Positions 837-14,552 of a stretch of 15,800 bases of DNA are shown here, piece by piece (position 1 is the first letter of the stretch; each line of letters starts with the position of its first letter). The DNA comes from a virus (taxonomy: Duplodnaviria > Heunggongvirae > Uroviricota > Caudoviricetes), in the IMG/VR virus record IMGVR_UViG_2693429605_000015, positions 1-15,800 of that record. One strand, written 5' to 3'. The notes beneath the pieces were generated by a model. The model saw only the letters and a program-made list of their open reading frames with translations. It did not search any database and was not told the DNA's origin. A program made the position numbers and the translations under genes.

Positions 837-1043
837 TCAACTCACAAAACGCCACGCCATTTTTGCTACGACAACAGGCATAACACCGATAATCACCCAG
901 ACAAATGCAGCGCCAAACAACGTATACCATGGGTCTTTACCGTCATTCACAAGACGAATGTAGCTATTCAGAACAATAAAAAACGTCAGAAGAATCCATC
1001 CAACGCCAACGCATTTGAATGCGACGAGCATAAACTCAGCCAC
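837..1043 (-). CDS. Small hydrophobic (2 predicted TM) protein, 68 aa, likely GTG start
   Basis: GTG at 1043 preceded by GGGGGAGAG; translation has two hydrophobic stretches (GWILLTFFIVL, AAFVWVIIGVMPVVV). Sits just downstream of the tR2-like terminator. Confidence 0.4.
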   Translation of the reverse strand: MAEFMLVAFKCVGVGWILLTFFIVLNSYIRLVNDGKDPWYTLFGAAFVWVIIGVMPVVVAKMAWRFVS

Positions 1044-1056
1044 GATTTACTCTCCC

Positions 1057-1090
1057 CCAAATAAAAAGGCCTGCGATTACCAGCAGGCCT
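1057..1090 (-). terminator. Rho-independent terminator after the helicase gene (tR2-like position)
   Basis: Perfect 8-bp inverted repeat AGGCCTGC (1067-1074) / GCAGGCCT (1083-1090) with 8-nt loop; on the minus strand it is followed by TTTTATTT (plus 1059-1066). Confidence 0.55.
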
Positions 1091-1118
1091 GTTATTAGCT
1101 CAGTGATGTAGATGGTCA

Positions 1119-2555
1119 TCAGAATCCTCCTTTCTTCTTGGACTGCGGTTCCTCGCGTTCACGGCGGCGCATTTCAGCAGACTGTTGGTCTGTGTCATAA
1201 ATAGCGCCATTTGCCTGAATGCAATACACCGTGCCGGTATTGCCATGACGATTGAGGCGAAGGATTAGTTCGGTTTCACCAGGAGGAACGCTGTCATCAA
1301 AAGCGCCTTCACGATGGATCCCCACCCAATAATCGCAATCCTGTTCAATCTGCCCTGTATCTCGTGAGTCACTTGGTAATGGGCGTTTATTGGTTCGGCT
1401 TTCCAGTGCGCGGTTAAGCTGTGTCAGAAGCACAACAACGCAATCAAGCTCTTTGGCAAGGTTCTTCAGTCCTTTGGTGATCATGCCGTAAGCAAGGTCG
1501 TTGCGATCGGCCTTCTCAGCGGTCATTAGTGTCAGGTAATCGACCAGAATCATGCCAACACATCCTTTTTCTCGCTTGATTCGACGGCTTTCGCTGACGA
1601 TTTGAGCCAGAGATAATCCCGGCGTGTCGTCGATGTAAAGCAGGTCGATTTCACTCAAGCGATTGGCTGTTTCGATCGCCCTGTTGAAGTCACCATCGTA
1701 ATCACCCTGATAGCCGTCATCAGCGTCATTTGTCGCCAGAAGGTAAAAAATATTGGGGTTAACACCTGACTTTTGCCCTACCAGTTTTTCCAGTATCTGG
1801 TCACCTGGCATTTCAAGGCTGAACATCAGAGCGGGCTTTTTCTCATGCACTGCGCAGTTGATTGCCATCTGGCTGTATAGCGTCGTTTTCCCCATCTTAG
1901 GGCGAGCGCCAATGACAAACAAAGAGCCTTTCACCAGACCTTTCGGTGACAGCATCCTGTCCAGCGATGGGATCCCTGTGCTCATTCCTCGTTGTTCGCC
2001 TGACGGGTCAAATCGCTTCTCAAGGTCGCTAACCCAGTCTTCCATGACCTCACCAAATGAGCGAAGGCCGCGACGCGATCCGGTTTTTGCATGGTCTGTC
2101 AGTTGCGTGAAAATCGCCTGAATAGCTTCGTACTTCTGCGTTGCAGTCATTCCGTTGCGGGAATAGAGCAATTCCGTCGCTTCAGTCATGCGGTTGATGG
2201 CGTAGCGTTCCATTGCGGTTTCACGAACCTGCATTGCATAGGCAACGATGTTTGCTGCGCTTGGCGTGTTCTTTGCGATCTCAGCGATATAAGCAAAACC
2301 GCCAACAGACTCCGTTAACGATTTACGCTCCAGTTCATCGAAAAGCGTCAGGCCATCTACTGGCTTTTGCTCCCGGTGCATTATGGTTATTTCTTCGAAA
2401 AGGATTTTGTGTGGCCGGCTGTAAAATGAATCAGGCTTCAGCATCGCCAGAACTTTCTGGACGCGCTCACTGCTGTCATCATCCAGAAGCAATCCACCAA
2501 TCACCGCCTGCTCTGCCTCGATGCTATGGGGCGGCGCATAAAAATTATCGGTCAT
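1119..2555 (-). CDS. Replicative DNA helicase, DnaB family (lambda P / P22 gene 12 position)
   Basis: N-terminal PHSIEAEQAVIGGLLLDD and Walker A GARPKMGKT, colinear with E. coli DnaB as recalled. Start placed at ATG 2555 (GAGGGTG SD upstream) rather than the GTG at 2570 used by the ORF track. Confidence 0.9.
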   Translation of the reverse strand: MTDNFYAPPHSIEAEQAVIGGLLLDDDSSERVQKVLAMLKPDSFYSRPHKILFEEITIMHREQKPVDGLTLFDELERKSLTESVGGFAYIAEIAKNTPSAANIVAYAMQVRETAMERYAINRMTEATELLYSRNGMTATQKYEAIQAIFTQLTDHAKTGSRRGLRSFGEVMEDWVSDLEKRFDPSGEQRGMSTGIPSLDRMLSPKGLVKGSLFVIGARPKMGKTTLYSQMAINCAVHEKKPALMFSLEMPGDQILEKLVGQKSGVNPNIFYLLATNDADDGYQGDYDGDFNRAIETANRLSEIDLLYIDDTPGLSLAQIVSESRRIKREKGCVGMILVDYLTLMTAEKADRNDLAYGMITKGLKNLAKELDCVVVLLTQLNRALESRTNKRPLPSDSRDTGQIEQDCDYWVGIHREGAFDDSVPPGETELILRLNRHGNTGTVYCIQANGAIYDTDQQSAEMRRREREEPQSKKKGGF

Positions 2556-3444
2556 CGTGTTCACCCTCACGAACTTTCAGGTAGGTATTATCGTTAAGCA
2601 GGAAATCAAATCCCTTTTTGTGCCAGACGGTTCCGCGTTGATGGTTTGGGCGCTCTTCGAACATCCATCGGCAATTTTCGCCTACGTAGCTCAAATAATT
2701 TCTCCAGTCCTGCATCGTGAACCCATGCCCGTCAAGCTGGCGGGTTATCACTCCGGCTTTGCGCCAGAACGTTCGGATCTGGTTTTTACGCTTGTCATTC
2801 AGTGCGCGGATTCTTGGCGCTTCAGGAAGGATTTCGTGGTAAGCATCGACAACATCCTGACAGCTAACGGAAGGTTTTTTCTTGTCAGACTTTTTGTCTG
2901 CTGCGGTACTCTCTAATACGTCAGTATTAGAGATAATATTATTATATTCTTTATCTGTGGTAATTTGCTGGTAATCTGCTGGTACAGTATTGCTTGCAGG
3001 CATTGGTATTGCTGGCTTTGAGGTGGTAATTTGCTGGTAATCTGCTGGTACAAAATTTGACTGATAATCGTCATATTTCTCTACCGAGAAAACTGAGAAT
3101 TTACCGTGTGAAACCCAGTCAATCATGCCGAGTTTTTTGAACTTTCTAAGCAGGTACTGAACGCGATCTGGTTTGAGTCCTGTTTCAAACGCCAGAGAGT
3201 TTCTACCGCCAAGTAGCTTCCCTCTGCCTACCAGAATTTCTCCTGCGTCAGTCATTACATACTCAGGCGTATGCTTTGCTTTGAGGATTAAGTGAACCCA
3301 CAGATGCGCAGCTTCTGCGTCCTTGTAAAACGGCACATCCATAATTTTACGGTGCAGCAAGGCATACCCCTTACCGCTGCTTTGATGCGGTTGTTGTAGC
3401 CTTCTGGCCTCTCTGGCTTCGGCTAGATTAGATATGTTACTCAT
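2545..3444 (-). CDS. Replication initiator, lambda O / P22 gene 18-like, with ori iterons inside the coding sequence
   Basis: 299-aa ORF between cII and the DnaB-like helicase; contains internal 30-bp direct repeats encoding the duplicated peptide [10 protein letters not shown]. Assignment is by synteny and the iteron-in-gene architecture, not by remembered identity. Confidence 0.7.
2957..3052. repeat. Candidate origin of replication: two identical 30-bp direct repeats with GCTGGTA sub-repeats, flanked by AT-rich DNA
   Basis: GTGGTAATTTGCTGGTAATCTGCTGGTACA occurs at 2957-2986 and 3023-3052; the motif TGCTGGTA recurs four times plus one TGCTGGC; AT-rich stretches at 2925-2955 and 3053-3110. 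Confidence 0.65.
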
Positions 3445-3583
3445 GACCTTTCTCCTTCTGCATCAGCTTCACTTTTTCCAACTCAGCCCGGAATCGACCA
3501 GGCTGCTTGAAGCTGGACAGGAAGCGATCACGTAGTATGTGTTTGTGAATTTTGTCCTGGTAAGGACTGAGTTGTTTTGTCAT
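3437..3583 (-). CDS. Small hypothetical protein (48 aa) between cII and the O-like gene
   Basis: Hand-translated: [51 protein letters not shown] at 3583 with AGGAG 5 nt upstream; stop overlaps the O-like start by 8 nt. Below the ORF-track length cutoff. Confidence 0.4.
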
Positions 3584-3617
3584 AATTACTCCTGTGGATT
3601 GATCCAGTCTTTCTACA

Positions 3618-3896
3618 TCAGGCCTCGAAGAATTTGCCGTTCTTCGGGGCTTTTTCTTTTGTCAGCATTCTGGCTACTTTCTTAGCCAGTTCCGCCAACT
3701 CCTCGTCTTCAACACCCCATTCAAGAACAGCCAGAAGCATTCCCATTTTTGGGATGAAGCTGTCTTTCCATCGCGAAATTTGCGATTCATTAATTCCTAA
3801 CGCGTCAGCAACCTTTCGCTGGCCACGTACAGCAATTCGATTCAGGATGTTGCTTGTAATTGCATTCGCTTTCTTGCGAGTACTTGTAAGTTGCAT
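3618..3896 (-). CDS. cII: CII transcriptional activator
   Basis: [26 protein letters not shown] matches lambda [29 protein letters not shown] as recalled; the translation-initiation region AAGGAAATACTTACATATG matches the lambda cII start region as recalled. Confidence 0.9.
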
Positions 3897-3905
3897 ATGT
3901 AAGTA
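3850..3905 (+). promoter_or_regulatory. Candidate PRE (CII-activated promoter reading toward cI) with TTGC-N6-TTGC-type sites
   Basis: Perfect TTGCttgtaaTTGC at 3850-3863; a second, imperfect TTGCgagtacTTGT at 3874-3887 sits at the lambda-equivalent distance from a TAAGTA -10 candidate (3900-3905). Both lie in the antisense of the cII 5' end, as in lambda. Confidence 0.4.
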
Positions 3906-3911
3906 TTTCCT

Positions 3912-3947
3912 TAACTAATAAGAAGTTATGCGCATCAACTTATGCGC
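3912..3947 (-). terminator. tR1-like hairpin between nutR and cII
   Basis: GCGCAT (3930-3935) / ATGCGC (3942-3947), 6-bp stem with 6-nt loop; followed on the minus strand by the A/U-rich AUAACUUCUUAUUAG. Weak intrinsic terminator geometry at the position of lambda tR1. Confidence 0.4.
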
Positions 3948-3953
3948 GTTGTA

Positions 3954-3998
3954 TTCCCGCATTTCGGCGGGAATGAGGACCATGACTGTTAAAGAGCG
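3954..3998 (-). promoter_or_regulatory. nutR: boxA (CGCTCTTTAACA) plus boxB hairpin
   Basis: On the minus strand: CGCTCTTTAACA (plus 3987-3998), 13-nt spacer, then hairpin TTCCCGC-CGAAAT-GCGGGAA (plus 3954-3973). The boxB is identical to the one at 5651-5668 downstream of PL. Confidence 0.6.
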
Positions 3999-4004
3999 GT
4001 GTTA

Positions 4005-4199
4005 CTATTTGTTTTTCTTGTTGCTTGGGAAAGGACGAACTTCCTCTCCAATCACACTGCCATCAGGCTTTACCGTAACCATGATGTTACGGCCTGCCAG
4101 AATGGCCTTGCTGATAGCGCACTGGATTACACCAAAGTCACTGGCTGCTTTAGCCTGTCCATGGATTTTGGCGTAATCGGCAAGTGTCATTCGAATCAT
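4005..4199 (-). CDS. cro: Cro repressor
   Basis: [39 protein letters not shown]...[11 protein letters not shown] is colinear with lambda Cro as recalled. Start placed at ATG 4199 (GGAG 7 nt upstream) rather than the track's GTG at 4205. Confidence 0.85.
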
Positions 4200-4228
4200 A
4201 TGCACTCTCCGTTATTAACCATGAACAA

Positions 4229-4299
4229 AGAATACTACAGGTATTCAAAGCAATCAATACTCAGGGTATTTTTAGTTTAAGTACCTTAGCTATTAGAAT
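4229..4299. promoter_or_regulatory. OR operator cluster with divergent PR (toward cro) and PRM (toward cI)
   Basis: Three 15-bp sites of form AATAC-N5-GTATT: 4231-4245 and 4256-4270 (perfect half-sites) and 4280-4294 (AgTAC...cTATT), centres 24-25 bp apart. PR on minus: -35 TTGATT (plus 4252-4257), 17-bp spacer, -10 TATTCT (plus 4229-4234). PRM on plus: -10 TAGAAT 4294-4299, 7 nt before the cI ATG, implying a near-leaderless cI mRNA as in lambda. Confidence 0.65.
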
Positions 4300-4305
4300 T
4301 AAGCT

Positions 4306-5022
4306 ATGGAAAATAAAAAATCACTGACGACAGAACAGCTGGAAGACGCTAAGCGGCTTAAGGCTTTGTATGAGTCAAAAAAGAAAGAATTGGGAATAAC
4401 CCAATACTCAATCGCTGATGAACTGGGTATCACCCAAGGAGCGGTAGGGCATTATCTTAATGGCAGAAATGCGCTAAACGTTGAGGTTGCATCTGGTTTT
4501 GCACGATTGTTGCAAGTCTCAATTGCTGATTTTAGCCAGTCAATTGCTGCCAAGGTTGCAGAACAGGCAGAAAGCCTTAAGAGCGATGCCAACGTAAGGT
4601 ATGCAGGGGAATACAGAGCAGGAAAGAGGTATCCGGTGTTAAGCAGTATCCAGGCTGGCTCGTGGTGTGAAGCATGCGAACCATACACCATTAAAGACAT
4701 AGATGTTTGGCTTGAGTCTGACGCGCATATTCAAGGTAATGCGTTCTGGCTTAAAGTGGAAGGTGATTCAATGACGGCACCGGTTGGGTTAAGCATTCCA
4801 GAGGGAACATTCGTTCTTTTCGATACCGGAAGGGAGGCGATCAACGGCAGCTTGGTCATAGCAAAACTTTCTGACTCTAACGAAGCAACATTCAAGAAGC
4901 TGATAATCGACGGCGGAAATAAATACCTCAAGGGACTTAATCCTGCATGGCCTCTCGTGCCAATCAATGGAAACTGCAAGATTATAGGCGTTGCAATTGA
5001 GACAAAACTAAGGCTGGTTTGA
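4306..5022 (+). CDS. cI: CI repressor (HTH N-terminal domain, LexA/S24-type autocleavage C-terminal domain)
   Basis: LTTEQLEDAKRLKALYESKKKELGITQ colinear with lambda CI as recalled; candidate Ala-Gly cleavage site in IQAGSW; Ser and Lys motifs VEGDSMTAP and TFKKLI match lambda VEGNSMTAP / TFKKLI. Confidence 0.9.
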   Translation: MENKKSLTTEQLEDAKRLKALYESKKKELGITQYSIADELGITQGAVGHYLNGRNALNVEVASGFARLLQVSIADFSQSIAAKVAEQAESLKSDANVRYAGEYRAGKRYPVLSSIQAGSWCEACEPYTIKDIDVWLESDAHIQGNAFWLKVEGDSMTAPVGLSIPEGTFVLFDTGREAINGSLVIAKLSDSNEATFKKLIIDGGNKYLKGLNPAWPLVPINGNCKIIGVAIETKLRLV

Positions 5023-5039
5023 TCACGCAAGGGGCGATT

Positions 5040-5408
5040 ATGGTTGGAACCGCTATAGCAAGCTTTTTTGGGATGTTGGCAATCTCGACAATTTACGGCT
5101 TAGCGCATGCTTTTATTGCGAAATCTCTATCAGAAAAAATAAGCCAGGCTTGGGCGCATAGATCAGCTCGTTTCATGATTCTAGTGATCATAGCAATACA
5201 AGGGATATCTGCATTTATCCTCTATGGTTCAAGCTTATACCTGTTGTATCAAGGCGCGACATTTACGCCTTACACCAGTGATTACGGAACTCTATACGAT
5301 GGTAGTGAAGACATCTCTATGGCTTGGATTGTCTTTGGTTTATCTATGGCCGTGTCTGTTGTAGCAGATATCATTAAGGTAATTCTCGTCTTAACCTTCG
5401 CTGACTAA
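5040..5408 (+). CDS. Small integral membrane protein (about 3 TM) co-transcribed downstream of cI, in the rexA/rexB position
   Basis: ATG at 5040 with AAGGGG SD 5 nt upstream, 18 nt after the cI stop; three hydrophobic segments (VGTAIASFFGMLAISTIYGLAHAFIA; FMILVIIAIQGISAFILYG; MAWIVFGLSMAVSVVADIIKVILVL). No recognisable similarity to lambda RexB from memory. Confidence 0.6.
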   Translation: MVGTAIASFFGMLAISTIYGLAHAFIAKSLSEKISQAWAHRSARFMILVIIAIQGISAFILYGSSLYLLYQGATFTPYTSDYGTLYDGSEDISMAWIVFGLSMAVSVVADIIKVILVLTFAD

Positions 5409-5494
5409 CCTATAATCCCGGCAGCAATAGCTATCGGGATCCACTTCACATATCCCGCATAAAAAGCACTGAACAAGCAGACACCGAAAAAATA

Positions 5495-5581
5495 AATATC
5501 CTTTGTATTCATTTGCTTATCATTATTTCATCAAAAATAAATACCTTGGGTATTTACACAATAAAATACCTACAGTATTCT
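5495..5581 (+). promoter_or_regulatory. OL operators and PL promoter
   Basis: AATACCTTGGGTATT (5540-5554) and AATACCTACAGTATT (5565-5579) share the OR half-sites; a third, weaker AATATCCTTTGTATT at 5495-5509. PL: -35 TTTACA 5553-5558, 17-bp spacer, -10 TATTCT 5576-5581. Confidence 0.6.
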
Positions 5582-5627
5582 TTAGCCATCAGCAGGACGC
5601 TGGAAGCCAAACGGAACAGATTGGCAG

Positions 5628-5668
5628 GCTCTTTAACATTGATGGGATTGTCCCGCCGAAATGCGGGA
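5628..5668 (+). promoter_or_regulatory. nutL: boxA (GCTCTTTAACA) plus boxB hairpin
   Basis: GCTCTTTAACA at 5628-5638 (matches the rrn/lambdoid boxA consensus as recalled), 12-nt spacer, hairpin TCCCGC-CGAAAT-GCGGGA at 5651-5668, identical to the nutR boxB. Confidence 0.6.
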
Positions 5669-6112
5669 ACTGAGTTTAACCAAACAGGAGGTGCCGTAAT
5701 GGTGCACTAACGCGGTTAGACCGCAGCCGAAAGGAAATGCAGCAGTAATGATGCTGCCCTGAGTCGCCATTGAGCGAGCCTGCTTAGCATCGGGTTAGGG
5801 TCAATATATTAAAAGTAGCTCCGGTAAAGCAGCGCGAATGCCAGACGCGCACCGGTTATCAGCGGCGATGAAGCGGCAGAGACTCAAGGGCATGAGCGCG
5901 CTCACTGCGAGAGTGTGAGTCAAAGAGTAGTTGGCTTTGGGATTGGATGAATGAGCAGGCTGATGCTCGACCAATGTATAAACAGCGCTCATGGCAAGCA
6001 GTAACCAATCTGCGCCTCAAGACAGCGTCACTGGTAGTGCGGGCGCTCTAACCAGTAAGCCGGAATTCAGCACCGGCCATCCAATCACCAAAGTCAATCA
6101 TCGGAGGTCAAC

Positions 6113-6385
6113 ATGACAGTAGTCATTACATATCTGGCTGACGATAACGCCAGAAATCGCCGCAGAGCACGCAGACAGGCTCAACGTGAGCAGGCAATGC
6201 AAGAACAGCGACTGGCGCGAAAAATTGCGCTAAAGCTCTCTGGTTGCGTCAGAGCAGACAAAGCAGCATCACTCGGAAGCCTTCGCTGCAAGAAGGCAGA
6301 TGAATGCAGTGGAAGTATTTGCCTGCCAAACGTAGCCATTTACGCGGCAGGCTACCGGAAATCAAAACAACTGACGGCGAGGTAA
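6113..6385 (+). CDS. N: N-type transcription antiterminator (P22 gene 24-like)
   Basis: N-terminal arginine-rich motif NARNRRRARRQAQREQ; C-terminal VAIYAAGYRKSKQLTAR resembles the P22 gp24 C-terminus as recalled; GGAGG SD; sits downstream of PL/nutL. Confidence 0.75.
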   Translation: MTVVITYLADDNARNRRRARRQAQREQAMQEQRLARKIALKLSGCVRADKAASLGSLRCKKADECSGSICLPNVAIYAAGYRKSKQLTAR

Positions 6386-6387
6386 TT

Positions 6388-6780
6388 ATGGGTCAGGAAG
6401 AAAAATATGAGCTTAAAAAGCTCATTGAAGAAGACGCCATAGAAGAAATTGCAGCATTAACAACAGCTATAAATAATATTAGGTATGCGCTAAATACGCT
6501 TATCTCCTCATGCGACAAAAATAGCAGGGAATTTTTGATACTTGGCGCAGCTCTAGGAATAGTTGATGCGGCAACGCTTCACCTAATTACTCATGACGAT
6601 ATTCTTATTGAGCCGTATGAAACATTACTGCTTGTCAGGCAAAAAATGGCTGATGCCGCAGCAAATGGAGACCTTCAACTTTACATCGACTTAAGGAAAG
6701 TATTAAGGCGAATGGTCAGAACTGAAGGAGATATCCCACTGAGCGATGCTAAACAAGGCATACAAGCAAAGCTGGAATGA
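6388..6780 (+). CDS. Hypothetical early-left protein (130 aa)
   Basis: ATG at 6388 three nt after the N stop, with GAGG SD; acidic/helical composition; no family recognised. Confidence 0.55.
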   Translation: MGQEEKYELKKLIEEDAIEEIAALTTAINNIRYALNTLISSCDKNSREFLILGAALGIVDAATLHLITHDDILIEPYETLLLVRQKMADAAANGDLQLYIDLRKVLRRMVRTEGDIPLSDAKQGIQAKLE

Positions 6781-6840
6781 CCATTATCCTGATGAAGTAT
6801 CGAAAGCACAGTCAGCAATTAGCAAAGCTCTTGGGGAAGA

Positions 6841-7002
6841 ATGATGAATAAGAAATACATTGTTGAAGTTATAGAGCGAGAAACGAAAGAAGTAATCAAA
6901 CATTTCGAATTTGATAATTATAGAAAACCTGACCGCGTAGAAGAAGGATTGTTGCGACAAAGTAATCTCGAAAAATTTGATGTTGTCATGCGATGCGAAT
7001 AA
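6841..7002 (+). CDS. Small hypothetical protein (53 aa)
   Basis: Hand-translated MMNKKYIVEVIERETKEVIKHFEFDNYRKPDRVEEGLLRQSNLEKFDVVMRCE; GGGGAAG just upstream; followed by the hairpin at 7009-7032. Confidence 0.35.
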   Translation: MMNKKYIVEVIERETKEVIKHFEFDNYRKPDRVEEGLLRQSNLEKFDVVMRCE

Positions 7003-7095
7003 GCGCCTATAGCAGATTTACGAGTCTGCTATGTGAGCAATGTCGCTCGTAACTAAACAGGAGCCGACTTGTTCTGATTATTGGAAATCTTCTTT

Positions 7096-7120
7096 GCCCT
7101 CCAGTGTGAGGGCCTTTTTA
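7096..7120 (+). terminator. Rho-independent terminator (tL1-like, between the N module and cIII)
   Basis: GCCCTC (7096-7101) / GAGGGC (7108-7113), 6-bp stem with 6-nt loop, followed by CTTTTTA. Confidence 0.5.
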
Positions 7121-7185
7121 TATGCATACCAATAACGCTTCACTCGAGGCGTTTTCGTTATGCAATCAAACAGAAGGAGCATCCT

Positions 7186-7356
7186 ATGCAACAGTTCGCT
7201 ATTGCAGGGGCGGCATCGGTTCGCCCTTTCAACCCGATTTTATCGGTACAGCATTCACGAAAAAATATTTTAACCGGAGCAGACTTTAAACAACCAAGAA
7301 TGAAAAGCTTGCTCGAAAAGCTTTGGGATATTTTGAAACAACAAGGCCGTCCATGA
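7186..7356 (+). CDS. cIII: CIII-like protein (FtsH inhibitor that stabilises CII)
   Basis: 56 aa; MQQFAIAGAAS and central KSLLEKLWDILKQ resemble lambda CIII MQYAIAGW...ESLLERITRKLRDGWKRLIDIL as recalled; strong AAGGAG SD 6 nt upstream of ATG 7186. Confidence 0.65.
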   Translation: MQQFAIAGAASVRPFNPILSVQHSRKNILTGADFKQPRMKSLLEKLWDILKQQGRP

Positions 7357-7382
7357 GTTTTACCAATAAGGGGAGCAAGTAA

Positions 7383-8474
7383 ATGGCTATTCAGACTAAA
7401 ACATTGCAGGTACGCGTCAAAGACCGCCACGCCGCCTTGTTGCGTCAGATGGCCTTTGAAGTGAACCAAGTTTTTAACTTTATCAATGAAATGACTGCGA
7501 CTGAATACAGCACTGTCAGCGAATACGGACCAAAACAAAGAGTTTGGTTAACTGAATTTGACGTAGATAAACGCATTGCTGGTATTCAAAAGGAGCGCGG
7601 ATACCACATACAAGCAGCTACTTGTCAGGAAATCTCAAAACATCACGCTAAAGCGCGTAAACAGTTTAAACGCAGTAAGCTGCGCTGGCGTAAAAGTGGC
7701 GGTGCTGGGCGTAGTCTTGGTTGGGTTCCGTTCAAAGGTGCTCAAGTGAAATGGGTAAACGGCTGCATCAAGTTTGCCGGGCACTATTTCAAAGTGTGGG
7801 ATAGCTATGGATTAAATGGCTTTAAATTCCGTGCTGGTAACTTTGCAGAAGATGCGCGCGGTCGCTGGTATTTCAATGTTGCAGTTGAATACGAATGCGA
7901 ACCAACTAAAGGCACTGCCGACGTGGGTATCGATCTTGGTCTGAAAGACATTGCCACCACTTCGGATGGTGAAAAACTTCCTGCTAAACGTTGGTATCGT
8001 GAATTAGAAGGCAAATTAAAAATTGCTCAACGTGCCCATAATAAAAAACGTGTTAGAGCTATCCACGCAAAAATCAAAAATCGCCGTAAAGATGCACACC
8101 ATAAGTTTTCTACGGCGCTGGTTAATAAATACGCCGCTATTTTTGTAGGCGACGTAAGCAGTAAAAAGTTATCAAAAACAAATTTGGCAAAAAGTATCTA
8201 CGACGCCGGCTGGTGTCAGCTAAAAAATCAGATTCAGTATAAAGCGATTGCGCGGAGTGTGGTTTTTGAGGTCGTAGATGAAGCGTACACCACCCAGACT
8301 TGCTCGTGCTGCGGAGCTATTAGCTGCAGTAGTCCGAAGGGTAGGGTAGGCCTTGGAATAAGAGAATGGATCTGCGTGGAATGTGGTGAACTCCACGACC
8401 GCGACGTAAACGCGGCAAAGAACATTCTCGCGGCGGGACATCGCCGTCTCGAAGGAGGAATCCACGCCCTTTAG
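7383..8474 (+). CDS. tnpB: TnpB-family protein (IS200/IS605 OrfB-like; RuvC-like nuclease fold with zinc finger), 363 aa
   Basis: RuvC-I VGIDLGLKDIATTSDG; zinc finger TQTCSCCG...WICVECG; RuvC-III HDRDVNAAKNI; DAGW...YKA helper motif. GGGGAG SD upstream. No tnpA-like (HUH) ORF nearby. Confidence 0.85.
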   Translation: MAIQTKTLQVRVKDRHAALLRQMAFEVNQVFNFINEMTATEYSTVSEYGPKQRVWLTEFDVDKRIAGIQKERGYHIQAATCQEISKHHAKARKQFKRSKLRWRKSGGAGRSLGWVPFKGAQVKWVNGCIKFAGHYFKVWDSYGLNGFKFRAGNFAEDARGRWYFNVAVEYECEPTKGTADVGIDLGLKDIATTSDGEKLPAKRWYRELEGKLKIAQRAHNKKRVRAIHAKIKNRRKDAHHKFSTALVNKYAAIFVGDVSSKKLSKTNLAKSIYDAGWCQLKNQIQYKAIARSVVFEVVDEAYTTQTCSCCGAISCSSPKGRVGLGIREWICVECGELHDRDVNAAKNILAAGHRRLEGGIHAL

Positions 8475-8740
8475 GGCGTGGAGGATGTCAAAGATAACTG
8501 GTCAGACAAAGAATTCATTCGTCAGATGAAAGAATTAATCGGTAACGAAGGAGATATGCATGTCACTTGCAACCACAGTGAAGGAGAGCAAGTTACAGAG
8601 ACGCATGTACACGCAGAAAGCTCTCTGGTATCGCCATAATGGCGACCGCGAAGGAATGCGGGTATGCCTTAATTTGTCCCGAGTCGAAGTATTAAATCAG
8701 CGTTATTTCCTTGGGCCATGTCCATTCTGAGAACAATCAT
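8459..8740 (+). ncRNA. Candidate TnpB-associated guide RNA (omega-RNA-like) region: 3' end of tnpB plus 266-nt non-coding gap
   Basis: Perfect 9-bp hairpin TCCACGCCC-TTTA-GGGCGTGGA (8461-8482) straddling the tnpB stop; second hairpin TCGCCA-TAA-TGGCGA (about 8627-8641); unusually long non-coding gap in a tightly packed operon. Inference only. Confidence 0.25.
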
Positions 8741-9346
8741 ATGAGCAAAGAATTTTACGCAAGACTGGCAGCTATTCAGGAGAATCTGAACGCGCCAAAG
8801 AATCAGTACAACTCATTCGGCAAATATAAATACAGAAGCTGCGAAGACATTCTTGAAGGCGTTAAGCCGTTACTGAATGGCCTGTTTTTATCAATCAGCG
8901 ATGAAGTTGTGCTGATTGGTGATCGGTATTACGTGAAAGCCACGGCAACTATTACCGATGGCGAAAACAGCCATACGGCAACCGCTCTTGCACGAGAGGA
9001 AGAAAGCAAGAAAGGAATGGATTCTGCACAAGTTACGGGAGCTACAAGCTCTTATGCACGCAAGTATTGCCTCAATGGTTTGTTCGGCATTGATGATGCG
9101 AAAGATGCAGATACCGACGAGCATAAACATCAGCAGAACGCAGCAGCAAAGCAATCAAAACCATCACCTACACCTGAACAGGTTCTAAAAGCATTCACTG
9201 ACGCAGCATTGCAGAAAAACACCGTAGAAGAGCTTAAACAGGCGTTCGCCAAAGCGTGGAAGATGCTCGAAGGCACACCGGAGCAGCACAAAGCACAGGA
9301 CGTTTACAACATCAGACGAGACGAATTAGAAGGAGCGGCTGCTTAA
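8741..9346 (+). CDS. erf: Erf-family single-strand annealing recombinase
   Basis: MSKEFYARLAAIQENLNAPKNQYNSFGKYKYRSCEDILEGVKPLL... matches P22 Erf as recalled. ATG at 8741 preferred over the track's upstream TTG at 8711. Confidence 0.8.
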   Translation: MSKEFYARLAAIQENLNAPKNQYNSFGKYKYRSCEDILEGVKPLLNGLFLSISDEVVLIGDRYYVKATATITDGENSHTATALAREEESKKGMDSAQVTGATSSYARKYCLNGLFGIDDAKDADTDEHKHQQNAAAKQSKPSPTPEQVLKAFTDAALQKNTVEELKQAFAKAWKMLEGTPEQHKAQDVYNIRRDELEGAAA

Positions 9347-9729
9347 TGGCACATTCGATTACTGTAAGACTAAACAAGCCCGCAAGAGAGTTTCAGGCCG
9401 GGGAAAATATCGGATTCAACATCCGTGCTGGCGTTCAGTATTACGATCGCCAGACAAAAAAGAAAGAATGGACAAACTACAGCGCCGTTGTATTTGCCAA
9501 GCCGGGAGCGCAAGCGGATTACTACCGTAGTGTTCTTGTTGAAGGTGGCATTGTGGAAATTACCGGAGAAAACATCAGGGTTGATGTTTATCAGGGGCAA
9601 AATGGTCAATCAATCACTCTTGAATTACTGAATGCAAAGATTGGATTTGCAACTTCAGGAAACAGCCAACAGCAGCAAAGTAGCAATCATCAAAATCATC
9701 CTGAATACGACGATTCAATTCCCTTCTAG
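9346..9729 (+). CDS. Phage single-stranded DNA-binding protein (SSB-like) with acidic C-terminal tail
   Basis: ATG at 9346 overlaps the erf stop (TAATG); AGGAG SD; Q-rich linker and C-terminal YDDSIPF resembling the E. coli SSB tail DFDDDIPF. Confidence 0.65.
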   Translation: MAHSITVRLNKPAREFQAGENIGFNIRAGVQYYDRQTKKKEWTNYSAVVFAKPGAQADYYRSVLVEGGIVEITGENIRVDVYQGQNGQSITLELLNAKIGFATSGNSQQQQSSNHQNHPEYDDSIPF

Positions 9730-9752
9730 ATTAGCAAAATAAGGATTCCATT

Positions 9753-10046
9753 ATGCCAGCGCCTCTGTATGGTGCGGATGACCCGCGCCGCTGTTCCGGC
9801 AATTCCGTATCGGAGGTGCTGGATAAATTCAGAAAAAACTACGATCGAATAATGTCTCTACCGCAGGAAACGAAAGAGGAAAAGGAGTTTCGCCACTGCA
9901 TATGGCTTGCAGAGAAAGAAGAACGAGAGCGAATTTACCAGACATCAATCCGACCATTCCGCAAAGCCACATATACCCACTTCCCTGAAATCGACCCGCG
10001 CCTGCGTAATTACCGCTCACGCTATGGCGCTATCAGTAATGACTGA
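9753..10046 (+). CDS. Abc2-like protein (putative anti-RecBCD), 97 aa
   Basis: Position immediately after erf/ssb as in P22-like recombination modules; AAGGA SD. The family name rests on synteny and an uncertain memory of P22 Abc2, not on verified identity. Confidence 0.5.
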   Translation: MPAPLYGADDPRRCSGNSVSEVLDKFRKNYDRIMSLPQETKEEKEFRHCIWLAEKEERERIYQTSIRPFRKATYTHFPEIDPRLRNYRSRYGAISND

Positions 10047-10056
10047 GGAATTAACA

Positions 10057-10230
10057 ATGAAAACAATGAAGCTAAACATCGACCTCGGAAAATACGTTAT
10101 TACCGGAACAAAACACGATCTGATTCTTAGCGAAAGAGGAATTATCAAAGAAGGCGAGAATGCAGGGAAAGAAACACTAAGCCGTATCGGTTATTACAGC
10201 AAGTTTGAGCATCTGGTTAAAGAGTTATGA
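10057..10230 (+). CDS. Small hypothetical protein (57 aa)
   Basis: ATG at 10057 with GAGGAA SD; MKTMKLNIDLGKYVITGTKHDLILSERGIIKEG... Confidence 0.45.
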   Translation: MKTMKLNIDLGKYVITGTKHDLILSERGIIKEGENAGKETLSRIGYYSKFEHLVKEL

Positions 10231-10343
10231 AACCGTGAAATCCTGTTATCTCAGGCGCAGACGCTACAGGATATTCAGCAGCATATCGAGACTTTAGGTG
10301 TGTCACTTAGCATGGCTATTGACCAGTTCGTGGAGAGTAAATC

Positions 10344-10508
10344 ATGAGAGGTCTTGCATACAATCCCGGCATTCTTCCGGCAGAAATGATTATTCGCCAA
10401 CGCGTAAAGCCAATGCCATCGAGAGAGGAATTGCTTAAGAGAAATTCTTTTCCATCAGTGAATCAAAACAAATATCTGAATGCGATGTGGCGGAGTGGGA
10501 AGAAATGA
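10344..10508 (+). CDS. Small hypothetical protein (54 aa)
   Basis: Hand-translated [54 protein letters not shown]; GGAGAG SD; stop overlaps the next start (ATGA). Confidence 0.4.
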
Positions 10509-10948
10509 AACAAATGTCACTAATTGAGATGGATGGATTTCTGAAAGGTAAATGCATCCCAAGTGATTTAAAGGTTAACGAAACAAACGCTGAATATCTG
10601 GTGCGTAAGTTCGGTGAACTTGAATCAAAACTAGAAACAGCGTTGCGTGAGTGTCGTTCTGCTGGAATCACGATTGATAACCTTGAGGCCAAGTGCGCGG
10701 CGCTGGCTGTGGAGAATGCGGGGATGAAAGAATATCTAGCTCCAGTAGGGTTAGTGGTAGAGGGAACCCCAGCCACCGACGCCTTCCTGGCTGAAGTGCG
10801 GGCGCAGGGTGTGGAGATGGCTCGTAACGCGATGATTGATTTTGTTGATGGTGAAGTTGGGCCAAACAAGAACGTTCCGGGGCTGATTAGAGGCGCAGAG
10901 ATATGCGTAAGTATTGCTGCCCAGCTTCGCAAAGGAGGCAACCAATGA
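10505..10948 (+). CDS. Hypothetical protein (147 aa)
   Basis: ATG at 10505 translationally coupled to the upstream ORF; coiled-coil-like composition; no family recognised. Confidence 0.55.
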
Positions 10949-11226
10949 GCGTAATCCAGTACGTAGTTAGAGATGCAGGCACGTTTCCTGAGGATGCGTT
11001 TTTTCTCGATCCTCGACACATCGATGAGCTCATTTCTGAGTGGGAATTGGAATGCTTGTCTCAGGATGCCTCCCTTGATTATTTTGACAATCATGACGGC
11101 TTGGAATCTGACTGGCCGTTGGATATCGAGCTATTCATTGACGGTGAGAGCGTAGGTGTATTCACGGTTGAAATGGAACATGTACCTCAATTCAGCGCAA
11201 GAAAAATACCGGAGGCCGCCCAATGA
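10945..11226 (+). CDS. Hypothetical acidic protein (93 aa)
   Basis: ATGA overlap with the upstream gene; AGGAGG SD. Confidence 0.6.
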   Translation: MSVIQYVVRDAGTFPEDAFFLDPRHIDELISEWELECLSQDASLDYFDNHDGLESDWPLDIELFIDGESVGVFTVEMEHVPQFSARKIPEAAQ

Positions 11227-11726
11227 GCAACATCGACAAACGCGCATTACGTCATAGCGCAGAAAGCATAATCGGCATTCTGGAAAACATTGCCGGGTTC
11301 GAACCATCTGATATCGACGGCGACTCTGTAGAGCTCCGCTTTGAAACTGAGGACGGTTTCGATACTGGTTGTGACGTTAGCATTGTTGACCAGTGCCAGA
11401 AAACCGCTGATGTAGTTCGGGCGCTGCTGGATGAGCTGGAAAGAAACCAGCAATACATCAAACGCCGCGACCAGGAGAACGAGGATATTGCGCTAACGGT
11501 AGGGAAGCTGCGTGTTGAGCTTGAAGCAGAAAAACAGCGGGCAAAAGTTCTATTTATGGAAAATGCTCGGCTTAAGTCAGGCATAGCCGGTCTGATACAC
11601 CTCGGTATTCGATATGCAGATGTTGAGGTCATGAAAATTGCTGGAGATGCCCAGCTTTCTACCCCATGCACTGACAGCATCATAAACAGCATTGCAACAG
11701 GCATTCGCATCAACGGAGGTGAGTAG
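11223..11726 (+). CDS. Hypothetical protein (167 aa)
   Basis: ATGA overlap with the upstream gene; GGAGG SD; coiled-coil-like central segment. Confidence 0.6.
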   Translation: MSNIDKRALRHSAESIIGILENIAGFEPSDIDGDSVELRFETEDGFDTGCDVSIVDQCQKTADVVRALLDELERNQQYIKRRDQENEDIALTVGKLRVELEAEKQRAKVLFMENARLKSGIAGLIHLGIRYADVEVMKIAGDAQLSTPCTDSIINSIATGIRINGGE

Positions 11727-11898
11727 TGCGTGTGGCATGTATCGGCTTGTTACCGTACCCGACTCGTTTTTGGGCTTCTGCGCTAATTGCAAAGCCACAT
11801 GTCCTGATGGCTGACAACATCATCCCGGCACCAAAGCGCCGCCATACTGGTATTGCAGCGGCACGACGAGCAGCAAAGAAACGCAGGAGAGCAAAGCG

Positions 11899-12087
11899 AT
11901 GAAAAACCGTAAGGCAAAGATTCTGTTAGCTCGCAGAAACGGTGTTGGGGTCTGGCGATGGTTGAGGATTAGTAACAGACGAGTGAGGTTGACGGGGTGT
12001 TGCGGGGTTATGGGGCACAGTTGTTGCAAAAAGCCCAGTGCGGCGCAAAACCGCTGGAAAAACCACTTACGCACTAAAGGAGCCTGA
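11899..12087 (+). CDS. Possible small basic protein (62 aa), doubtful
   Basis: Good SD (AGGAGAG) and stop 1 nt before the next gene start, but the composition is unusual (Arg/Trp/Cys-rich, low complexity). Confidence 0.3.
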   Translation: MKNRKAKILLARRNGVGVWRWLRISNRRVRLTGCCGVMGHSCCKKPSAAQNRWKNHLRTKGA

Positions 12088-12088
12088 T

Positions 12089-12298
12089 ATGGCTATTGCC
12101 GCAAGTTACACCATGCATCTCTACTGTGATTGTCGCCAGTGTACAAATGGTAAATATCAAACGCCAGACTTCGGTGAGTATATCGGTACGTCATGGGCTG
12201 GCTGTGCAAAAGAGGCGCGCAAGGATGGCTGGCGAATAAGCAAAGACAAAACGCGTGCTTTTGCGCCCGGGCATAAAGTTTTGAGGATTAACAAATGA
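12089..12298 (+). CDS. Small Cys-rich protein (69 aa)
   Basis: ATG at 12089 with AAGGAG SD; MAIAASYTMHLYCDCRQCTNGKYQ...GCAKEA has four to five Cys spaced like a small zinc ribbon. Confidence 0.5.
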   Translation: MAIAASYTMHLYCDCRQCTNGKYQTPDFGEYIGTSWAGCAKEARKDGWRISKDKTRAFAPGHKVLRINK

Positions 12299-12939
12299 CC
12301 ACTATTACCAGAGAACAAGCTCTGAAAATTATTGAGGCAGCCGATGAGGTTATTAGTGCGCTTGCCGGAACTAACGAGGATGTTCACCCTGGTAGCGATA
12401 ACATGCTACGTCTGTGGGATGACCTGAATGACCGTTACGCGCCCCCGGAAGTAGTGCGTGAGCTGGCACGAATTGTGCTGGCATCGCTGGAAGCAGAACC
12501 TGTAAGCCAAACTTACAACTTGCCACAAACGCACTTTGAACAGGTTGCTGACCTTTACGAAATGCAATTTGATGACGGACGCACTTGTGCCTTTCATACT
12601 GATGCGCAAAAGGCTGCGCAATGGCTTCGGGCATGCGACGGAAACAGGGTTCAGGAATACGTGAAACTGGAGCGACTGCAGAACGCGCTATCGGGCAACT
12701 CTCCGGTAATTCCGGATGGCTGGATAAGCTGTAGTGAGCGAATGCCGGAAAAGAATAAGAACGTGCTTATTTCGGTGAATTTCGATAGCTCTCTGGTTGA
12801 GCCGCTAATATGCTCCGCACGCTATACCGGAAGTACATTCCGGCGTGGAGATGTAACGGTTAAGCCAGGTAATGGTATTGAGCAGGCAACCCACTGGATG
12901 CCTCTACCAGAACCGCCTCAGGAGGTTAACCGTGGCTAA
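12295..12939 (+). CDS. Phage protein with C-terminal DUF551-like domain (214 aa)
   Basis: C-terminal WISCSERMPE...VLISV...THWMPLPEPP recalls the DUF551 signature common in enterobacterial prophages; GAGGA SD; ATGA overlap with the upstream gene. Confidence 0.6.
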   Translation: MTTITREQALKIIEAADEVISALAGTNEDVHPGSDNMLRLWDDLNDRYAPPEVVRELARIVLASLEAEPVSQTYNLPQTHFEQVADLYEMQFDDGRTCAFHTDAQKAAQWLRACDGNRVQEYVKLERLQNALSGNSPVIPDGWISCSERMPEKNKNVLISVNFDSSLVEPLICSARYTGSTFRRGDVTVKPGNGIEQATHWMPLPEPPQEVNRG

Positions 12940-13213
12940 CCTGCAACTTGCCGTCAAAGGTGAATACTTCGATGCCATGATTCGCGGAGAGAAAACGGAA
13001 GAGTATCGCCTGTGTAATGACTATTGGAATAAGCGAATTATGTTCAGGGAGTATGACCGCCTGATTATCACAAAGGGATATCCGAAGCGCGACGACTCCA
13101 GTCGCAGAATTGATGTTCCGTATGGAGGATATGAAGTGAAAACAATCACACACCCCCACTTCGGTGATAAACCGGTAAAGGTATACGCGATAAAGGTGAA
13201 TATCAATTGCTAA
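12932..13213 (+). CDS. Small ASCH/PUA-like domain protein (93 aa), GTG start
   Basis: GTG at 12932 with GGAGG 6 nt upstream; LQLAVKGEYFDAMIRGEKTEEYR resembles ASCH-domain N-termini. Tentative. Confidence 0.5.
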   Translation: MANLQLAVKGEYFDAMIRGEKTEEYRLCNDYWNKRIMFREYDRLIITKGYPKRDDSSRRIDVPYGGYEVKTITHPHFGDKPVKVYAIKVNINC

Positions 13214-13325
13214 ATTAGTAGCATAGCATAAAGATGCTTGCATTAATGAAGTGTGTATAATAACGCCTCATCAATAGTAAACTACTGAAATAGCAAAAAA
13301 ATGCATATTAAAGAGGATTCGAAAA

Positions 13326-13517
13326 TTGAAAATGTTCATGCAAATAGACAGACGCATAGATATTAATGGCAATTCATACTTAGTTAGATGCGAAGAGAGG
13401 CCTAACGGTGAGTGGCGTGTATATGATATTGACCGTAAGATCAATATCAGCACCATGAACAAAGACACTGCCTTTGATGAATGGAAAGCTGAAGCTAAAA
13501 AACAACATAATTCGTAG
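13326..13517 (+). CDS. Small hypothetical protein (about 61-63 aa)
   Basis: Follows an AT-rich promoter-like gap (13214-13325); start TTG 13326 or ATG 13332; AGAGGA upstream. Confidence 0.4.
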   Translation: MKMFMQIDRRIDINGNSYLVRCEERPNGEWRVYDIDRKINISTMNKDTAFDEWKAEAKKQHNS

Positions 13518-13559
13518 AATTACAAAAACCCTAACCAATTGATGGATTTCTTTTATCTG

Positions 13560-13585
13560 AACTCGCTACGGCGAGTTTTGTTTTA
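13560..13585 (+). terminator. Rho-independent terminator
   Basis: AACTCGC (13560-13566) / GCGAGTT (13571-13577), 7-bp stem with 4-nt loop, followed by TTGTTTTA. Confidence 0.5.
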
Positions 13586-13597
13586 TGGAGATGATAA

Positions 13598-13765
13598 ATG
13601 CACTTCCGAGTCACAGGTGAATGGAATGGAGAACCATTCAACAGAGTTATCGAAGCGGAGAACATCAACGACTGCTATGACCACTGGATGATATGGGCGC
13701 AGATAGCGCATGCAGACGTAACCAATATTCGAATTGAAGAACTGAAAGAACACCAAGCCGCCTGA
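13598..13765 (+). CDS. Small hypothetical protein (55 aa)
   Basis: Hand-translated MHFRVTGEWNGEPFNRVIEAENINDCYDHWMIWAQIAHADVTNIRIEELKEHQAA; GGAG SD; followed by a terminator. Confidence 0.45.
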   Translation: MHFRVTGEWNGEPFNRVIEAENINDCYDHWMIWAQIAHADVTNIRIEELKEHQAA

Positions 13766-13780
13766 TGGCGGTTTTTTATT
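13756..13780 (+). terminator. Rho-independent terminator
   Basis: CCGCC (13758-13762) / GGCGG (13767-13771) stem with TGAT loop, followed by TTTTTTATT. Confidence 0.6.
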
Positions 13781-13787
13781 GCCTGAT

Positions 13788-13803
13788 TTGCAGGTTCGAT
13801 TCC
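13788..13803 (+). other. tRNA T-arm-like fragment (TTGCAGGTTCGATTCC) just upstream of torI
   Basis: 16 nt identical to the T-stem/loop portion of tRNA-Arg (argW) as recalled; the downstream sequence does not complete a tRNA (no matching 3' T-stem or acceptor). Confidence 0.4.
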
Positions 13804-13822
13804 CTATTCGGAGATAGCACTC

Positions 13823-14023
13823 ATGCAACACGAACTACAACCTGATTCACTGGTTGATTTGAAATTCATCATGGCTGATACTGGCTTCGGTAAGACCTTC
13901 ATCTATGACCGGATTAAGTCCGGCGACCTGCCAAAAGCCAAAGTTATCCACGGGCGAGCAAGATGGTTATATCGTGACCATTGTGAATTCAAAAATAAGC
14001 TATTAAGCCGCGCCAATGGGTAA
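13823..14023 (+). CDS. torI: TorI-type excisionase / recombination directionality factor (KplE1/CPS-53 family)
   Basis: 66-aa product MQHELQPDSLVDLKFIMADTGFGKTFIYDRIKSGDLPKAKVIHGRARWLYRDHCEFKNKLLS recalled as E. coli TorI; GGAG SD; sits at the prophage end next to the att core. Confidence 0.8.
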   Translation: MQHELQPDSLVDLKFIMADTGFGKTFIYDRIKSGDLPKAKVIHGRARWLYRDHCEFKNKLLSRANG

Positions 14024-14096
14024 AATAGCGGGTAAAATATTTCTCACATCTAAAAAATACCATTCCAATCAATCCCCTGCTGCCTCAAGTAGATGT

Positions 14097-14111
14097 CTGC
14101 AGGGGACACCA
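14097..14111 (+). other. Prophage attachment-site core (attR side): duplicated 3' end of tRNA-Arg (argW)
   Basis: CTGCAGGGGACACCA equals the 3' T-stem strand, acceptor strand, discriminator and CCA of argW as recalled, with no complete tRNA upstream; phage-type genes stop here and a host gene follows. Confidence 0.5.
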
Positions 14112-14552
14112 GATACCCTTCAAACGAAATCTACCTTCACCCCGTAAAAGATGGGTTTGGCAGCACACTTGCCTTATATCTACTCATTTTTACTGCAACA
14201 GGTTGAAATCTCAGCACTGTCAGAAAGCGCTGATGACTAAACAGCCCTGAGCCGGGCGATGTAACCATCACACAGAATCCTGATAGCGAAATATGGCGTG
14301 ACTCGATACTTCACTCCGCAATGCATTCCTTGATGAATTCGCAGGACCGTGATACACGGGACAGGTCACTGAATGACGACAATGTCCTGGAAATCAGCGA
14401 ACCGCGCATCTGAAGTACATTTGAGCGACTGTACCAGAACATGAATGAGGCGTTTGGATTAGGCGATTATTAGCAGGGCTAAGCATTTTACTATTATTAT
14501 TTTCCGGTTGAGGGATATAGAGCTATCGACAACAACCGGAAAAAGTTTACGT

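Follow-up and report, generated by a model that had tools for sequence, protein, structure and literature searches.

Structure of the tnpB locus

We analyzed a 15,800-nucleotide stretch of DNA from a tailed phage (Caudoviricetes; positions 1 to 15,800 of IMG/VR record IMGVR_UViG_2693429605_000015), referred to below as the window. It covers the lambdoid early-left (PL) operon of an E. coli prophage. The genes cII and cro lie on the minus strand. The plus strand carries cI, N, cIII, tnpB, several small open reading frames (ORFs), erf, an SSB-like gene, abc2 and xis, in this order. The tnpB gene (positions 7383–8474, plus strand, 363 amino acids) is co-oriented with PL and is part of an inserted element of 1128 bp (7364–8491, plus strand). 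The element consists of a 19-nt leader with a Shine-Dalgarno sequence, the tnpB coding sequence and a transposon right end.

The insertion is exact when compared with the empty site of E. coli A3, with no ambiguity in its boundaries and no target duplication. The empty allele reads ...CCATGAGTTTTAC followed by AGATAACTGGTCAGAC..., and the occupied allele reads ...TTTTAC / CAATAAGGGGAGCAAGTAA-ATG ... GGAATCCACGCCCTTTAGGGCGTGGAGGATGTCAA / AGATAAC.... As mapped by this comparison, the tetranucleotide TTAC (7360–7363, plus strand), corresponding to a target or transposon-adjacent motif (TAM), is located directly 5' of the insertion. The same boundaries were found at 14 occupied loci: the window, E. 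coli strain A2, ten loci retrieved by exact protein identity (L003–L012) and two contigs from a protein-based scan of IMG/VR. A megablast search with positions 7300–8750 against 5426 complete E. coli genomes returned the whole stretch from a single genome (strain A2, NZ_CP028772, platypus, 99.2% identical). In many other E. coli prophages of the same set the two flanks are directly joined. When IMG/VR was scanned with the 16 nt 3' of the insertion, about 115 of the 120 matches listed were empty sites and none was an occupied one.

A preliminary description of this DNA had noted correctly that tnpB starts 26 nt past the stop codon of cIII (cIII-like gene, 7186–7356). It had regarded the gene as an ordinary operon member, suggested to be co-opted by the phage, and had proposed to align related prophages in order to distinguish a stable operon member from an insertion. 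That alignment reveals a precise 1128-bp insertion 3' of TTAC with an IS608-type right end, present in 1 of the 5426 E. coli genomes and disrupting a conserved small gene (phrog_2123) rather than lying between genes. The span of 7383–8740 considered for a mobile unit has to be corrected to a right boundary at position 8491. Canonical IS200/IS605 ends together with a target motif had been named as the mark of a simple recent insertion; the right end and TTAC are present, the left end is absent.

The interrupted gene

In the empty sites the sequence ATGAGTTTTAC|AGATAACTGG is part of a 52-amino-acid ORF (MSFTDNWSDEEF...) which matches phrog_2123 over its full length (E=7e-42). It opens at an ATG that overlaps the stop codon of cIII (ATGA; MSFTDNWSDEEFIRQM...). 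The first 16 residues are kept across three versions with differing C-termini, and the variable sites of the empty alleles are distributed over codon positions 1/2/3 as 0/1/5. The conserved N-terminus and this codon-position pattern both indicate a real gene.

The element is placed after codon 3 of this gene, codons 4–9 being AGATAACTGGTCAGAC. What remains upstream is a short 5' stub (7353–7382, plus strand) that begins with phage sequence (ATG AGT TTT AC, to position 7363), runs into the element and reads MSFTNKGSK*. Its TAA (7380–7382) abuts the ATG of tnpB. The 3' arm of the right-end hairpin contains a GTG that shares the reading frame of the remainder of the gene (8478–8639, plus strand). 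This GTG at 8478, located 3 nt past the tnpB stop codon, is a possible restart point for the small gene; that the chained stops and starts restore its expression is speculation. The right-end hairpin (8462–8481) contains an A-T pair (CCACGCCC/GGGCGTGG) at a position where the related loci L019, L013 and L150 have C-G, and it is this double change that provides the GTG at 8478 in frame with the disrupted gene. A further difference was observed at position 8508, the 17th nucleotide past the right end. Six occupied loci have an A there (the window, strain A2, L009, L010, L151 and L152). The other occupied loci that retain the position have a G, as do at least 110 of the approximately 115 empty sites, none of which has an A. 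With A in place of G, the small gene encodes DKEF where it otherwise has DEEF.

Right end and missing left end

The right end (8458–8491, plus strand) is of the IS605 type. It comprises GAAT at the position of the guide tetranucleotide, the hairpin CCACGCCC-TTTA-GGGCGTGG and the 10 nt AGGATGTCAA ending in TCAA. The hairpin has 8 bp and folds as single-stranded DNA with a z-score of -3.0. IS608 inserts 3' of TTAC. The foot of its right-end hairpin is followed, 10 nt further in the 3' direction, by the right cleavage motif TCAA and is preceded on the 5' side by a four-base guide sequence (PMC3201880). The geometry of the right end described here is the same.

No hairpin that could serve as a left end was found in 7364–7470. 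The fold of this region is close to that of shuffled sequences (z=-0.6), and the right-end hairpin is not repeated in it. As the preliminary description had it, no IS200/IS605 left end precedes the gene. Only 19 nt separate the ATG from the junction. A left end hidden within the first 100 nt was considered and rejected on the same grounds, no hairpin and a fold like that of the shuffles. The absence of tnpA also holds up: a tblastn search with the TnpA of a relative, a transposase of the Y1 type, gave no match, either in the window or in a 17-kb stretch of strain A2. No promoter-like site was found on the plus strand in 6700–8900.

Relatives of the element show what has been lost. The TnpB P0016, 75% identical to that of the window, is encoded by a 1650-bp element with a divergently oriented Y1 tnpA of 135 amino acids, a left-end hairpin (CCCCGTCC-TTTGA-GGGCGGGG) and the same right end as in the window. 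Elements of this type occur at at least four differing sites in lambdoid phages, with left flanks that end in TGAC, TCAC, TTAC or TAAC. In a closer relative (L153, 87% identical) the left end is kept and tnpA is internally deleted. Relative to these elements, the one in the window starts inside the tnpA-tnpB intergenic region, at ...ATAGAC|CAA..., and the homologous point lies downstream of a TTGAC-N17-TATAT promoter which the relatives retain. Their left end is located approximately 150–520 nt upstream of the ATG, in sequence that is absent from the window element. Since the latter begins past the promoter of its relatives, left end, tnpA and tnpB promoter are all lost, and for this reason excision by a Y1 transposase should be impossible.

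In L153 (2415–2500), two copies of the motif ATAGACCAAC flank the tnpB promoter within the tnpA-tnpB intergenic region. L019 (2921–3000), a locus of the tnpA-carrying relative, has one copy and, in place of the second, ATAGACCGAA. The element of the window begins at the second copy of the motif, and a related cassette from Segzyvirus-type phages (see below) begins just past the first. We see several options for the origin of the left junction: aberrant TnpA cleavage at ...GAC| joined to cleavage at TTAC, excision after a nested insertion, or end-joining through a 2-nt AC microhomology during break repair. An RNA-derived copy was also considered, the left boundary lying a few nucleotides past the presumed tnpB transcription start of the relatives; it was dismissed, as the Segzyvirus cassette starts upstream of the promoter.

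The full tnpA-carrying element is found in 0 of the 5426 complete E. coli genomes. Six E. coli chromosomes contain only a 39-nt segment with the left-end hairpin of this relative (five copies at 100% identity, one at 97.4%), and short right-end tails are present on five plasmids. A k-mer search for left-end hairpins among 61 relatives recovered a left end in only 2 of 12 tnpA-carrying loci; it was too insensitive to tell how often the left end is lost, and was not used.

ωRNA scaffold and predicted guide

The 3' part of a predicted ωRNA scaffold (8403–8491, plus strand) overlaps the end of tnpB. An Rfam search gave a match to HgcC at 8381–8503 (26.9 bits, E=1.2e-3) and one to sot0042, both below the gathering threshold; we treated them as a lead only and then carried out a covariation analysis. 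HgcC and sot0042 are archaeal RNA families that overlap the 3' ends of tnpB genes. What HgcC has in common with the element is the terminal hairpin and the GAGGAUGUCA tail.

For the covariation analysis, the last 150 nt up to TCAA were aligned for 32 relatives with protein identities of 46–100%. RNAalifold and pair counting yielded four helices on the plus strand: 8403–8407/8485–8489, 8430–8436/8441–8447, 8448–8450/8455–8457 and the terminal hairpin 8461–8467/8476–8482. In the 22 base pairs of this model 97% of the alignment cells are paired, compared with 79.7% in shuffles and 41–55% when the partners are slid against each other. Compensatory changes occur in 14 of the 22 pairs, and 110 cells are changed on both sides versus 31 in shuffles. 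The helices 8430–8436/8441–8447 and 8448–8450/8455–8457 are located inside the coding sequence and outside the hairpin used by the transposase, and therefore support an RNA scaffold.

The sequence directly past TCAA is unrelated between loci, as would be expected for a guide derived from the flank. In the window the predicted guide, and likewise its target, is AGATAACTGGTCAGAC (8492–8507, plus strand), the first bases past the right end, which in empty sites directly follow TTAC. The guide is thus predicted from the sequence to be directed at the empty allele, i.e. the uninterrupted site of related phages. Nothing else in the window matches it when up to 3 mismatches are allowed.

One occupied locus deviates at this position. 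In L004 (GCA_013771725.1, from 4110 on) a precise deletion has removed the 16 nt AGATAACTGGTCAGAC that otherwise follow the right end (…GATGTCAA|GAAGAATTC). It corresponds exactly to the predicted guide and target (8492–8507 of the window) and ends in AGAC, the tetranucleotide that also precedes the truncation point of the window element (ATAGAC|CAA).

Active site of the TnpB protein

Profile searches confirmed the assignment of the tnpB product. It scores 209.5 bits against NCBIfam NF040570 (guided_TnpB, RNA-guided endonuclease TnpB family; cutoff 100, E=1e-61), 75.8 bits against Pfam PF07282 (Cas12f1-like_TNB; cutoff 26.3, E=3e-21) and 48.8 bits against PF01385 (OrfB_IS605; cutoff 30.5, E=1e-12), and its PHROG match is phrog_506. 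The TnpB hallmarks pointed out in the preliminary description are invariant in an alignment of 15 family members: GIDLGL with the RuvC-I residue D184, the CxxC...CxxC pattern (C307/C310 and C331/C334) and DRDVNAAKNI with the RuvC-III residue D341. The four cysteines form the C4 zinc finger of TnpB between RuvC-II and RuvC-III.

An alignment to the TnpB of ISDra2 (PDB-entries 8EXA and 8H1J) places G256 at the position of the RuvC-II glutamate E278. This glycine is invariant in all 15 relatives, including the tnpA-carrying relative found at several sites. On the next strand E300 is invariant and E296 nearly so, and both are candidates for a relocated glutamate. Altae-Tran et al. described large TnpB clades in which the RuvC-II glutamate is replaced by glycine and another glutamate compensates; these rearranged enzymes were predicted to be active, on the basis of structural models, and are as mobile as others (PMC10691335). 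By this analogy the nuclease of the window is probably active. The replacement of glutamate by glycine lends no support to a nuclease-dead regulator. Nothing suggests a regulator of the TldR type, as considered in the preliminary description: the protein is of full length, the same exchange occurs in the tnpA-carrying multi-site relative, and the guide matches the adjacent target, as it does in selfish IS copies.

The tnpB ORF is intact in all 14 copies. The ratio of nonsynonymous to synonymous substitution rates (dN/dS) is 0.057 between the window gene and a 91% identical relative. Between the tnpB genes of L013 and the Salmonella phage LPSTLL, which have a truncated junction without left end in common, it is 0.155, based on only 27 substitutions.

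Distribution among phages

A protein identical to that of the window is encoded on 22 contigs. The 14 occupied loci all carry the same 1128 bp with the same junctions and at the same site, and no copy of the unit was found at any other site. They differ from each other by 0–1 nt, strain A2 by 5 nt. As L003–L012 were found by exact protein identity, the diversity of the element is biased low, and a fair comparison has to rely on synonymous variation (one site in approximately 270). The surroundings are far from uniform. At least eight neighborhoods can be distinguished, with differing types of N, with ral, DUF2528, GP17 and Nmad5 present or absent, and with either Erf or Rad52 plus SSB as recombination genes. 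The flanks that the occupied loci have in common reach only approximately 240 nt on each side.

Across 12 occupied loci, 12 sites segregate within the 230 nt to the left of the element, 5 within the 100 nt to its right and 5 in the 1128 nt of the element itself (4 of these private to A2). The proportion is approximately 5% in the flanks versus 0.4% in the element. Polymorphisms at -116, -98, -94, -56 and +67 are common to occupied and empty sites, and the flank haplotypes of the occupied loci are as near to empty sites as to each other. All occupied loci belong to one of two left-flank types, the type that is represented by 31 of 101 empty sites. The element is younger than the variation of its flanks and has been set on several haplotypes by recombination. 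Such a pattern agrees with homing driven by the nuclease, but ordinary lambdoid recombination would be expected to look much alike.

Among viral relatives, 181 stretches contain a tnpB gene, and 69 of the best 80 are without tnpA. Of tnpB genes in general, approximately 75% have no tnpA nearby (PMC10055086). A cassette with 91% identical TnpB is located upstream of the lysis genes in virulent phages of the Segzyvirus type (L013, 2920–4125; L150, phage LPSTLL, NC_070846, 26646–27737), with phage Bas77 (L149) providing the empty site. It has neither tnpA nor a left end and has kept the promoter. A 10-nt target duplication (AGAATTAATC) flanks it, and the right flank is preceded by GTGAT, not TNAC. 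These junctions are unlike the products of Y1 transposition. The duplication at this second, independent cassette and the left junction of the window element could both stem from acquisition by one-sided repair of a double-strand break instead of transposition.

Proposed function of the cassette and alternative explanations

Based on the junctions, the lost parts and the conserved scaffold, we propose that 7364–8491 is most likely the right-hand part of an IS605-group element that persists as a selfish cassette of TnpB and ωRNA and that TnpA should no longer be able to move. On this view it is a passenger of the phage and not a phage function. The cassette would be transcribed from PL, and only on infection or induction. 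TnpB would then load an ωRNA generated by processing of the tnpB transcript, in which the adjacent AGATAACTGGTCAGAC serves as the guide, and the complex would cut the TTAC-flanked empty allele in related phages that are co-resident or co-infecting. Repair from the occupied copy, with help from the adjacent phage recombinases, would retain or copy the cassette in the manner of a homing endonuclease gene. Retention by cleavage of the empty site has been published for TnpB (PMC10055086); here it would take place between phage genomes. In this way RNA-guided cutting and recombination may account for the persistence and spread of the cassette. The further step, to regard it as a stand-alone RNA-guided homing endonuclease gene that spreads by cleavage at TTAC-AGATAACTGGTCAGAC and by phage recombination, we put forward only tentatively and consider rather less probable than its absence. 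The sequence data do display what is typical of homing genes: a fixed site in a conserved gene, sporadic occurrence among relatives and a target that equals the uninterrupted allele.

Several points weigh against this proposal. All activities assigned to the nuclease, the ωRNA and the homing process are deduced from sequence. The canonical RuvC-II glutamate is a glycine, and the published activity of such enzymes is model-based. One insertion followed by ordinary lambdoid recombination within the flanks of approximately 240 bp could give the same picture, and the single left-flank type is compatible with a single origin. The rarity of the element argues against an efficient drive.

In the most serious of the alternatives, an inert fragment of an IS605 element landed once in a lambdoid phage, was truncated and has since been moved by ordinary recombination until it decays. 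The lack of left end, tnpA and an own promoter, the great rarity of the element, the uniform left-flank type and the missing RuvC-II glutamate would all fit such a dead end. A decaying remnant is harder to reconcile with an ORF that is intact in all 14 copies, with the intact state of all ωRNA helices and with purifying selection in a lineage without left end (the dN/dS of 0.155, with its 27 substitutions), and the glycine is found family-wide, also in the multi-site relative with tnpA. We therefore judge this explanation unlikely, though it keeps a real share of the probability. Domestication as a regular gene of the PL operon, as a regulator of the TldR type or a weapon, appears quite improbable. 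It could draw on the orientation along PL and the dependence on PL transcription, on the missing transposase and left end, on the altered RuvC-II motif and on the closely chained starts and stops of the neighboring ORFs (ATGA, TAAATG, TAG-3 nt-GTG). A gene in the service of the phage, however, would hardly be absent from nearly all related prophages or interrupt a conserved phage gene. Its guide matches the flanking target and nothing else in the window, the protein is not shortened and retains D184, D341 and the zinc finger, and the near-zero diversity of the element marks it as young.

Least credible of all, and close to negligible in our estimate, is a non-autonomous insertion sequence of the IS1341 type whose left end would be hidden in the first ~100 nt, within reach of the coding sequence and overlapping it, and which a TnpA would mobilize in trans. 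Elements without tnpA are indeed the majority (approximately 75% of tnpB genes, PMC10055086; 69 of 80 viral relatives), the left junction is located exactly at TTAC, and the precise 16-nt deletion beside the right end of L004 could be an event of the TnpA type. Yet nothing in 7364–7470 resembles the right-end hairpin, the left end of the relatives is located approximately 150–520 nt upstream of the ATG in sequence that the window lacks, the element occupies one site only, and the tnpA-carrying relative does not occur among the 5426 complete E. coli genomes.

Comparison with known systems

The element resembles the IS608/IS605 group (Y1 TnpA plus TnpB, 'peel and paste') in its insertion 3' of TTAC without target duplication, in the subterminal right hairpin with GAAT 5' of the foot and TCAA 10 nt 3' of it, and in the overlap of tnpB with the right end; its 75% identical relative has the complete layout with divergent tnpA. 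It differs from this group in that it is without tnpA, left-end hairpin with its guide tetranucleotide, and tnpB promoter, and is found at a single site, so it should not transpose. With the TnpB-only elements of the IS1341 group it has in common that tnpB is the sole gene, and that the ωRNA scaffold extends over the 3' end of tnpB and stops at the right end. In archaea the ωRNAs of such elements correspond to the HgcC and sot0042 families; the resemblance to HgcC is weak but specific and covers the terminal hairpin and the GAGGAUGUCA tail. Those elements, however, keep both ends and are mobilized in trans, whereas only the right end is present here.

The TnpB proteins of ISDra2 and of the Geobacillus insertion sequences agree with that of the window in the order of their domains, in the zinc finger, in the RuvC-I and RuvC-III motifs and in the logic of a TAM and a guide taken from the flank, and their published role, cutting the empty site with repair from the occupied copy, is the one proposed here. 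Sequence identity to them is approximately 25–30% and limited to the RuvC half. In contrast to ISDra2, the RuvC-II glutamate is a glycine and conserved glutamates are found on the next strand (the 'RIIr' rearrangement). No transposase step would regenerate empty donor sites in our case, and the targets would be other phage genomes. The homing endonuclease genes of phages (T4 seg/mob) are similarly selfish nuclease genes at a fixed site in a conserved region, present in a minority of relatives, and the predicted target of the cassette is likewise the uninterrupted allele; the specificity of the cassette would come from an RNA guide, not from the protein. TldR proteins, nuclease-dead TnpB-like repressors of which some reside in enterobacterial prophages, are comparable in being TnpB relatives in a prophage without transposase. 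They differ from the TnpB of the window, which is of full length with the catalytic aspartates kept, is not conserved among related phages and has a guide that, in a search limited to the window, is not directed at a promoter.

TnpB-only elements and phage-borne relatives are already common; what is unusual is an element that has lost its left end and is found unchanged on many phage backgrounds. In the limited set of literature searched we found no report on TnpB in lambdoid phages or on TnpB homing between phages, which is no proof of novelty. The locus illustrates that the presence of tnpB in a phage operon that has no transposase does not in itself speak for domestication; the question is quickly answered by comparing occupied with empty sites. 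Only what RNA-guided cutting requires has been kept in the cassette, and it is nearly unchanged on many phage backgrounds. Should the nuclease of the cassette be the force behind its spread, we would have a natural example of TnpB as a stand-alone homing endonuclease that works between viruses. The cassette would then also offer a simple phage-cross system in which TnpB-driven inheritance and the activity of the clade with 'rearranged' RuvC-II could be followed.

Neighboring genes in the PL operon

The cIII-like gene (7186–7356, plus strand) encodes 56 amino acids and matches phrog_550 ('CIII anti-termination', E=1e-22). The preliminary description had placed tnpB directly upstream of erf and ssb. 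Both genes do follow on the plus strand, erf for a single-stranded DNA annealing recombinase (8741–9346; phrog_155, E=2e-57) and the SSB-like gene downstream of it (9346–9729), although small ORFs are located between tnpB and erf. Two such ORFs occupy 8478–8730 in differing, overlapping frames: the remainder of the phrog_2123 gene and a phrog_1723 ORF just upstream of erf (8560–8730, plus strand; E=9e-36). Both families are labelled 'recombinase', and outside their overlap both ORFs display substitution patterns of the coding type; in the phrog_1723 ORF the substitutions are spaced by 3 nt and fall on third codon positions.

A reverse-strand ORF of 219 amino acids (10435–11094) was discarded as probable antisense noise, as it has no Pfam or PHROG match. 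No integrase or tRNA gene was found within the window, so the integrase is presumably encoded at the other end of the prophage. At the right edge (13823–15800) an excisionase-like gene (phrog_66) is directly followed by the host gene cscB. A terminator-like hairpin with a run of T (7096–7113) is located inside the PL operon just upstream of cIII, and expression of tnpB and of the other downstream genes would therefore need antitermination by N.

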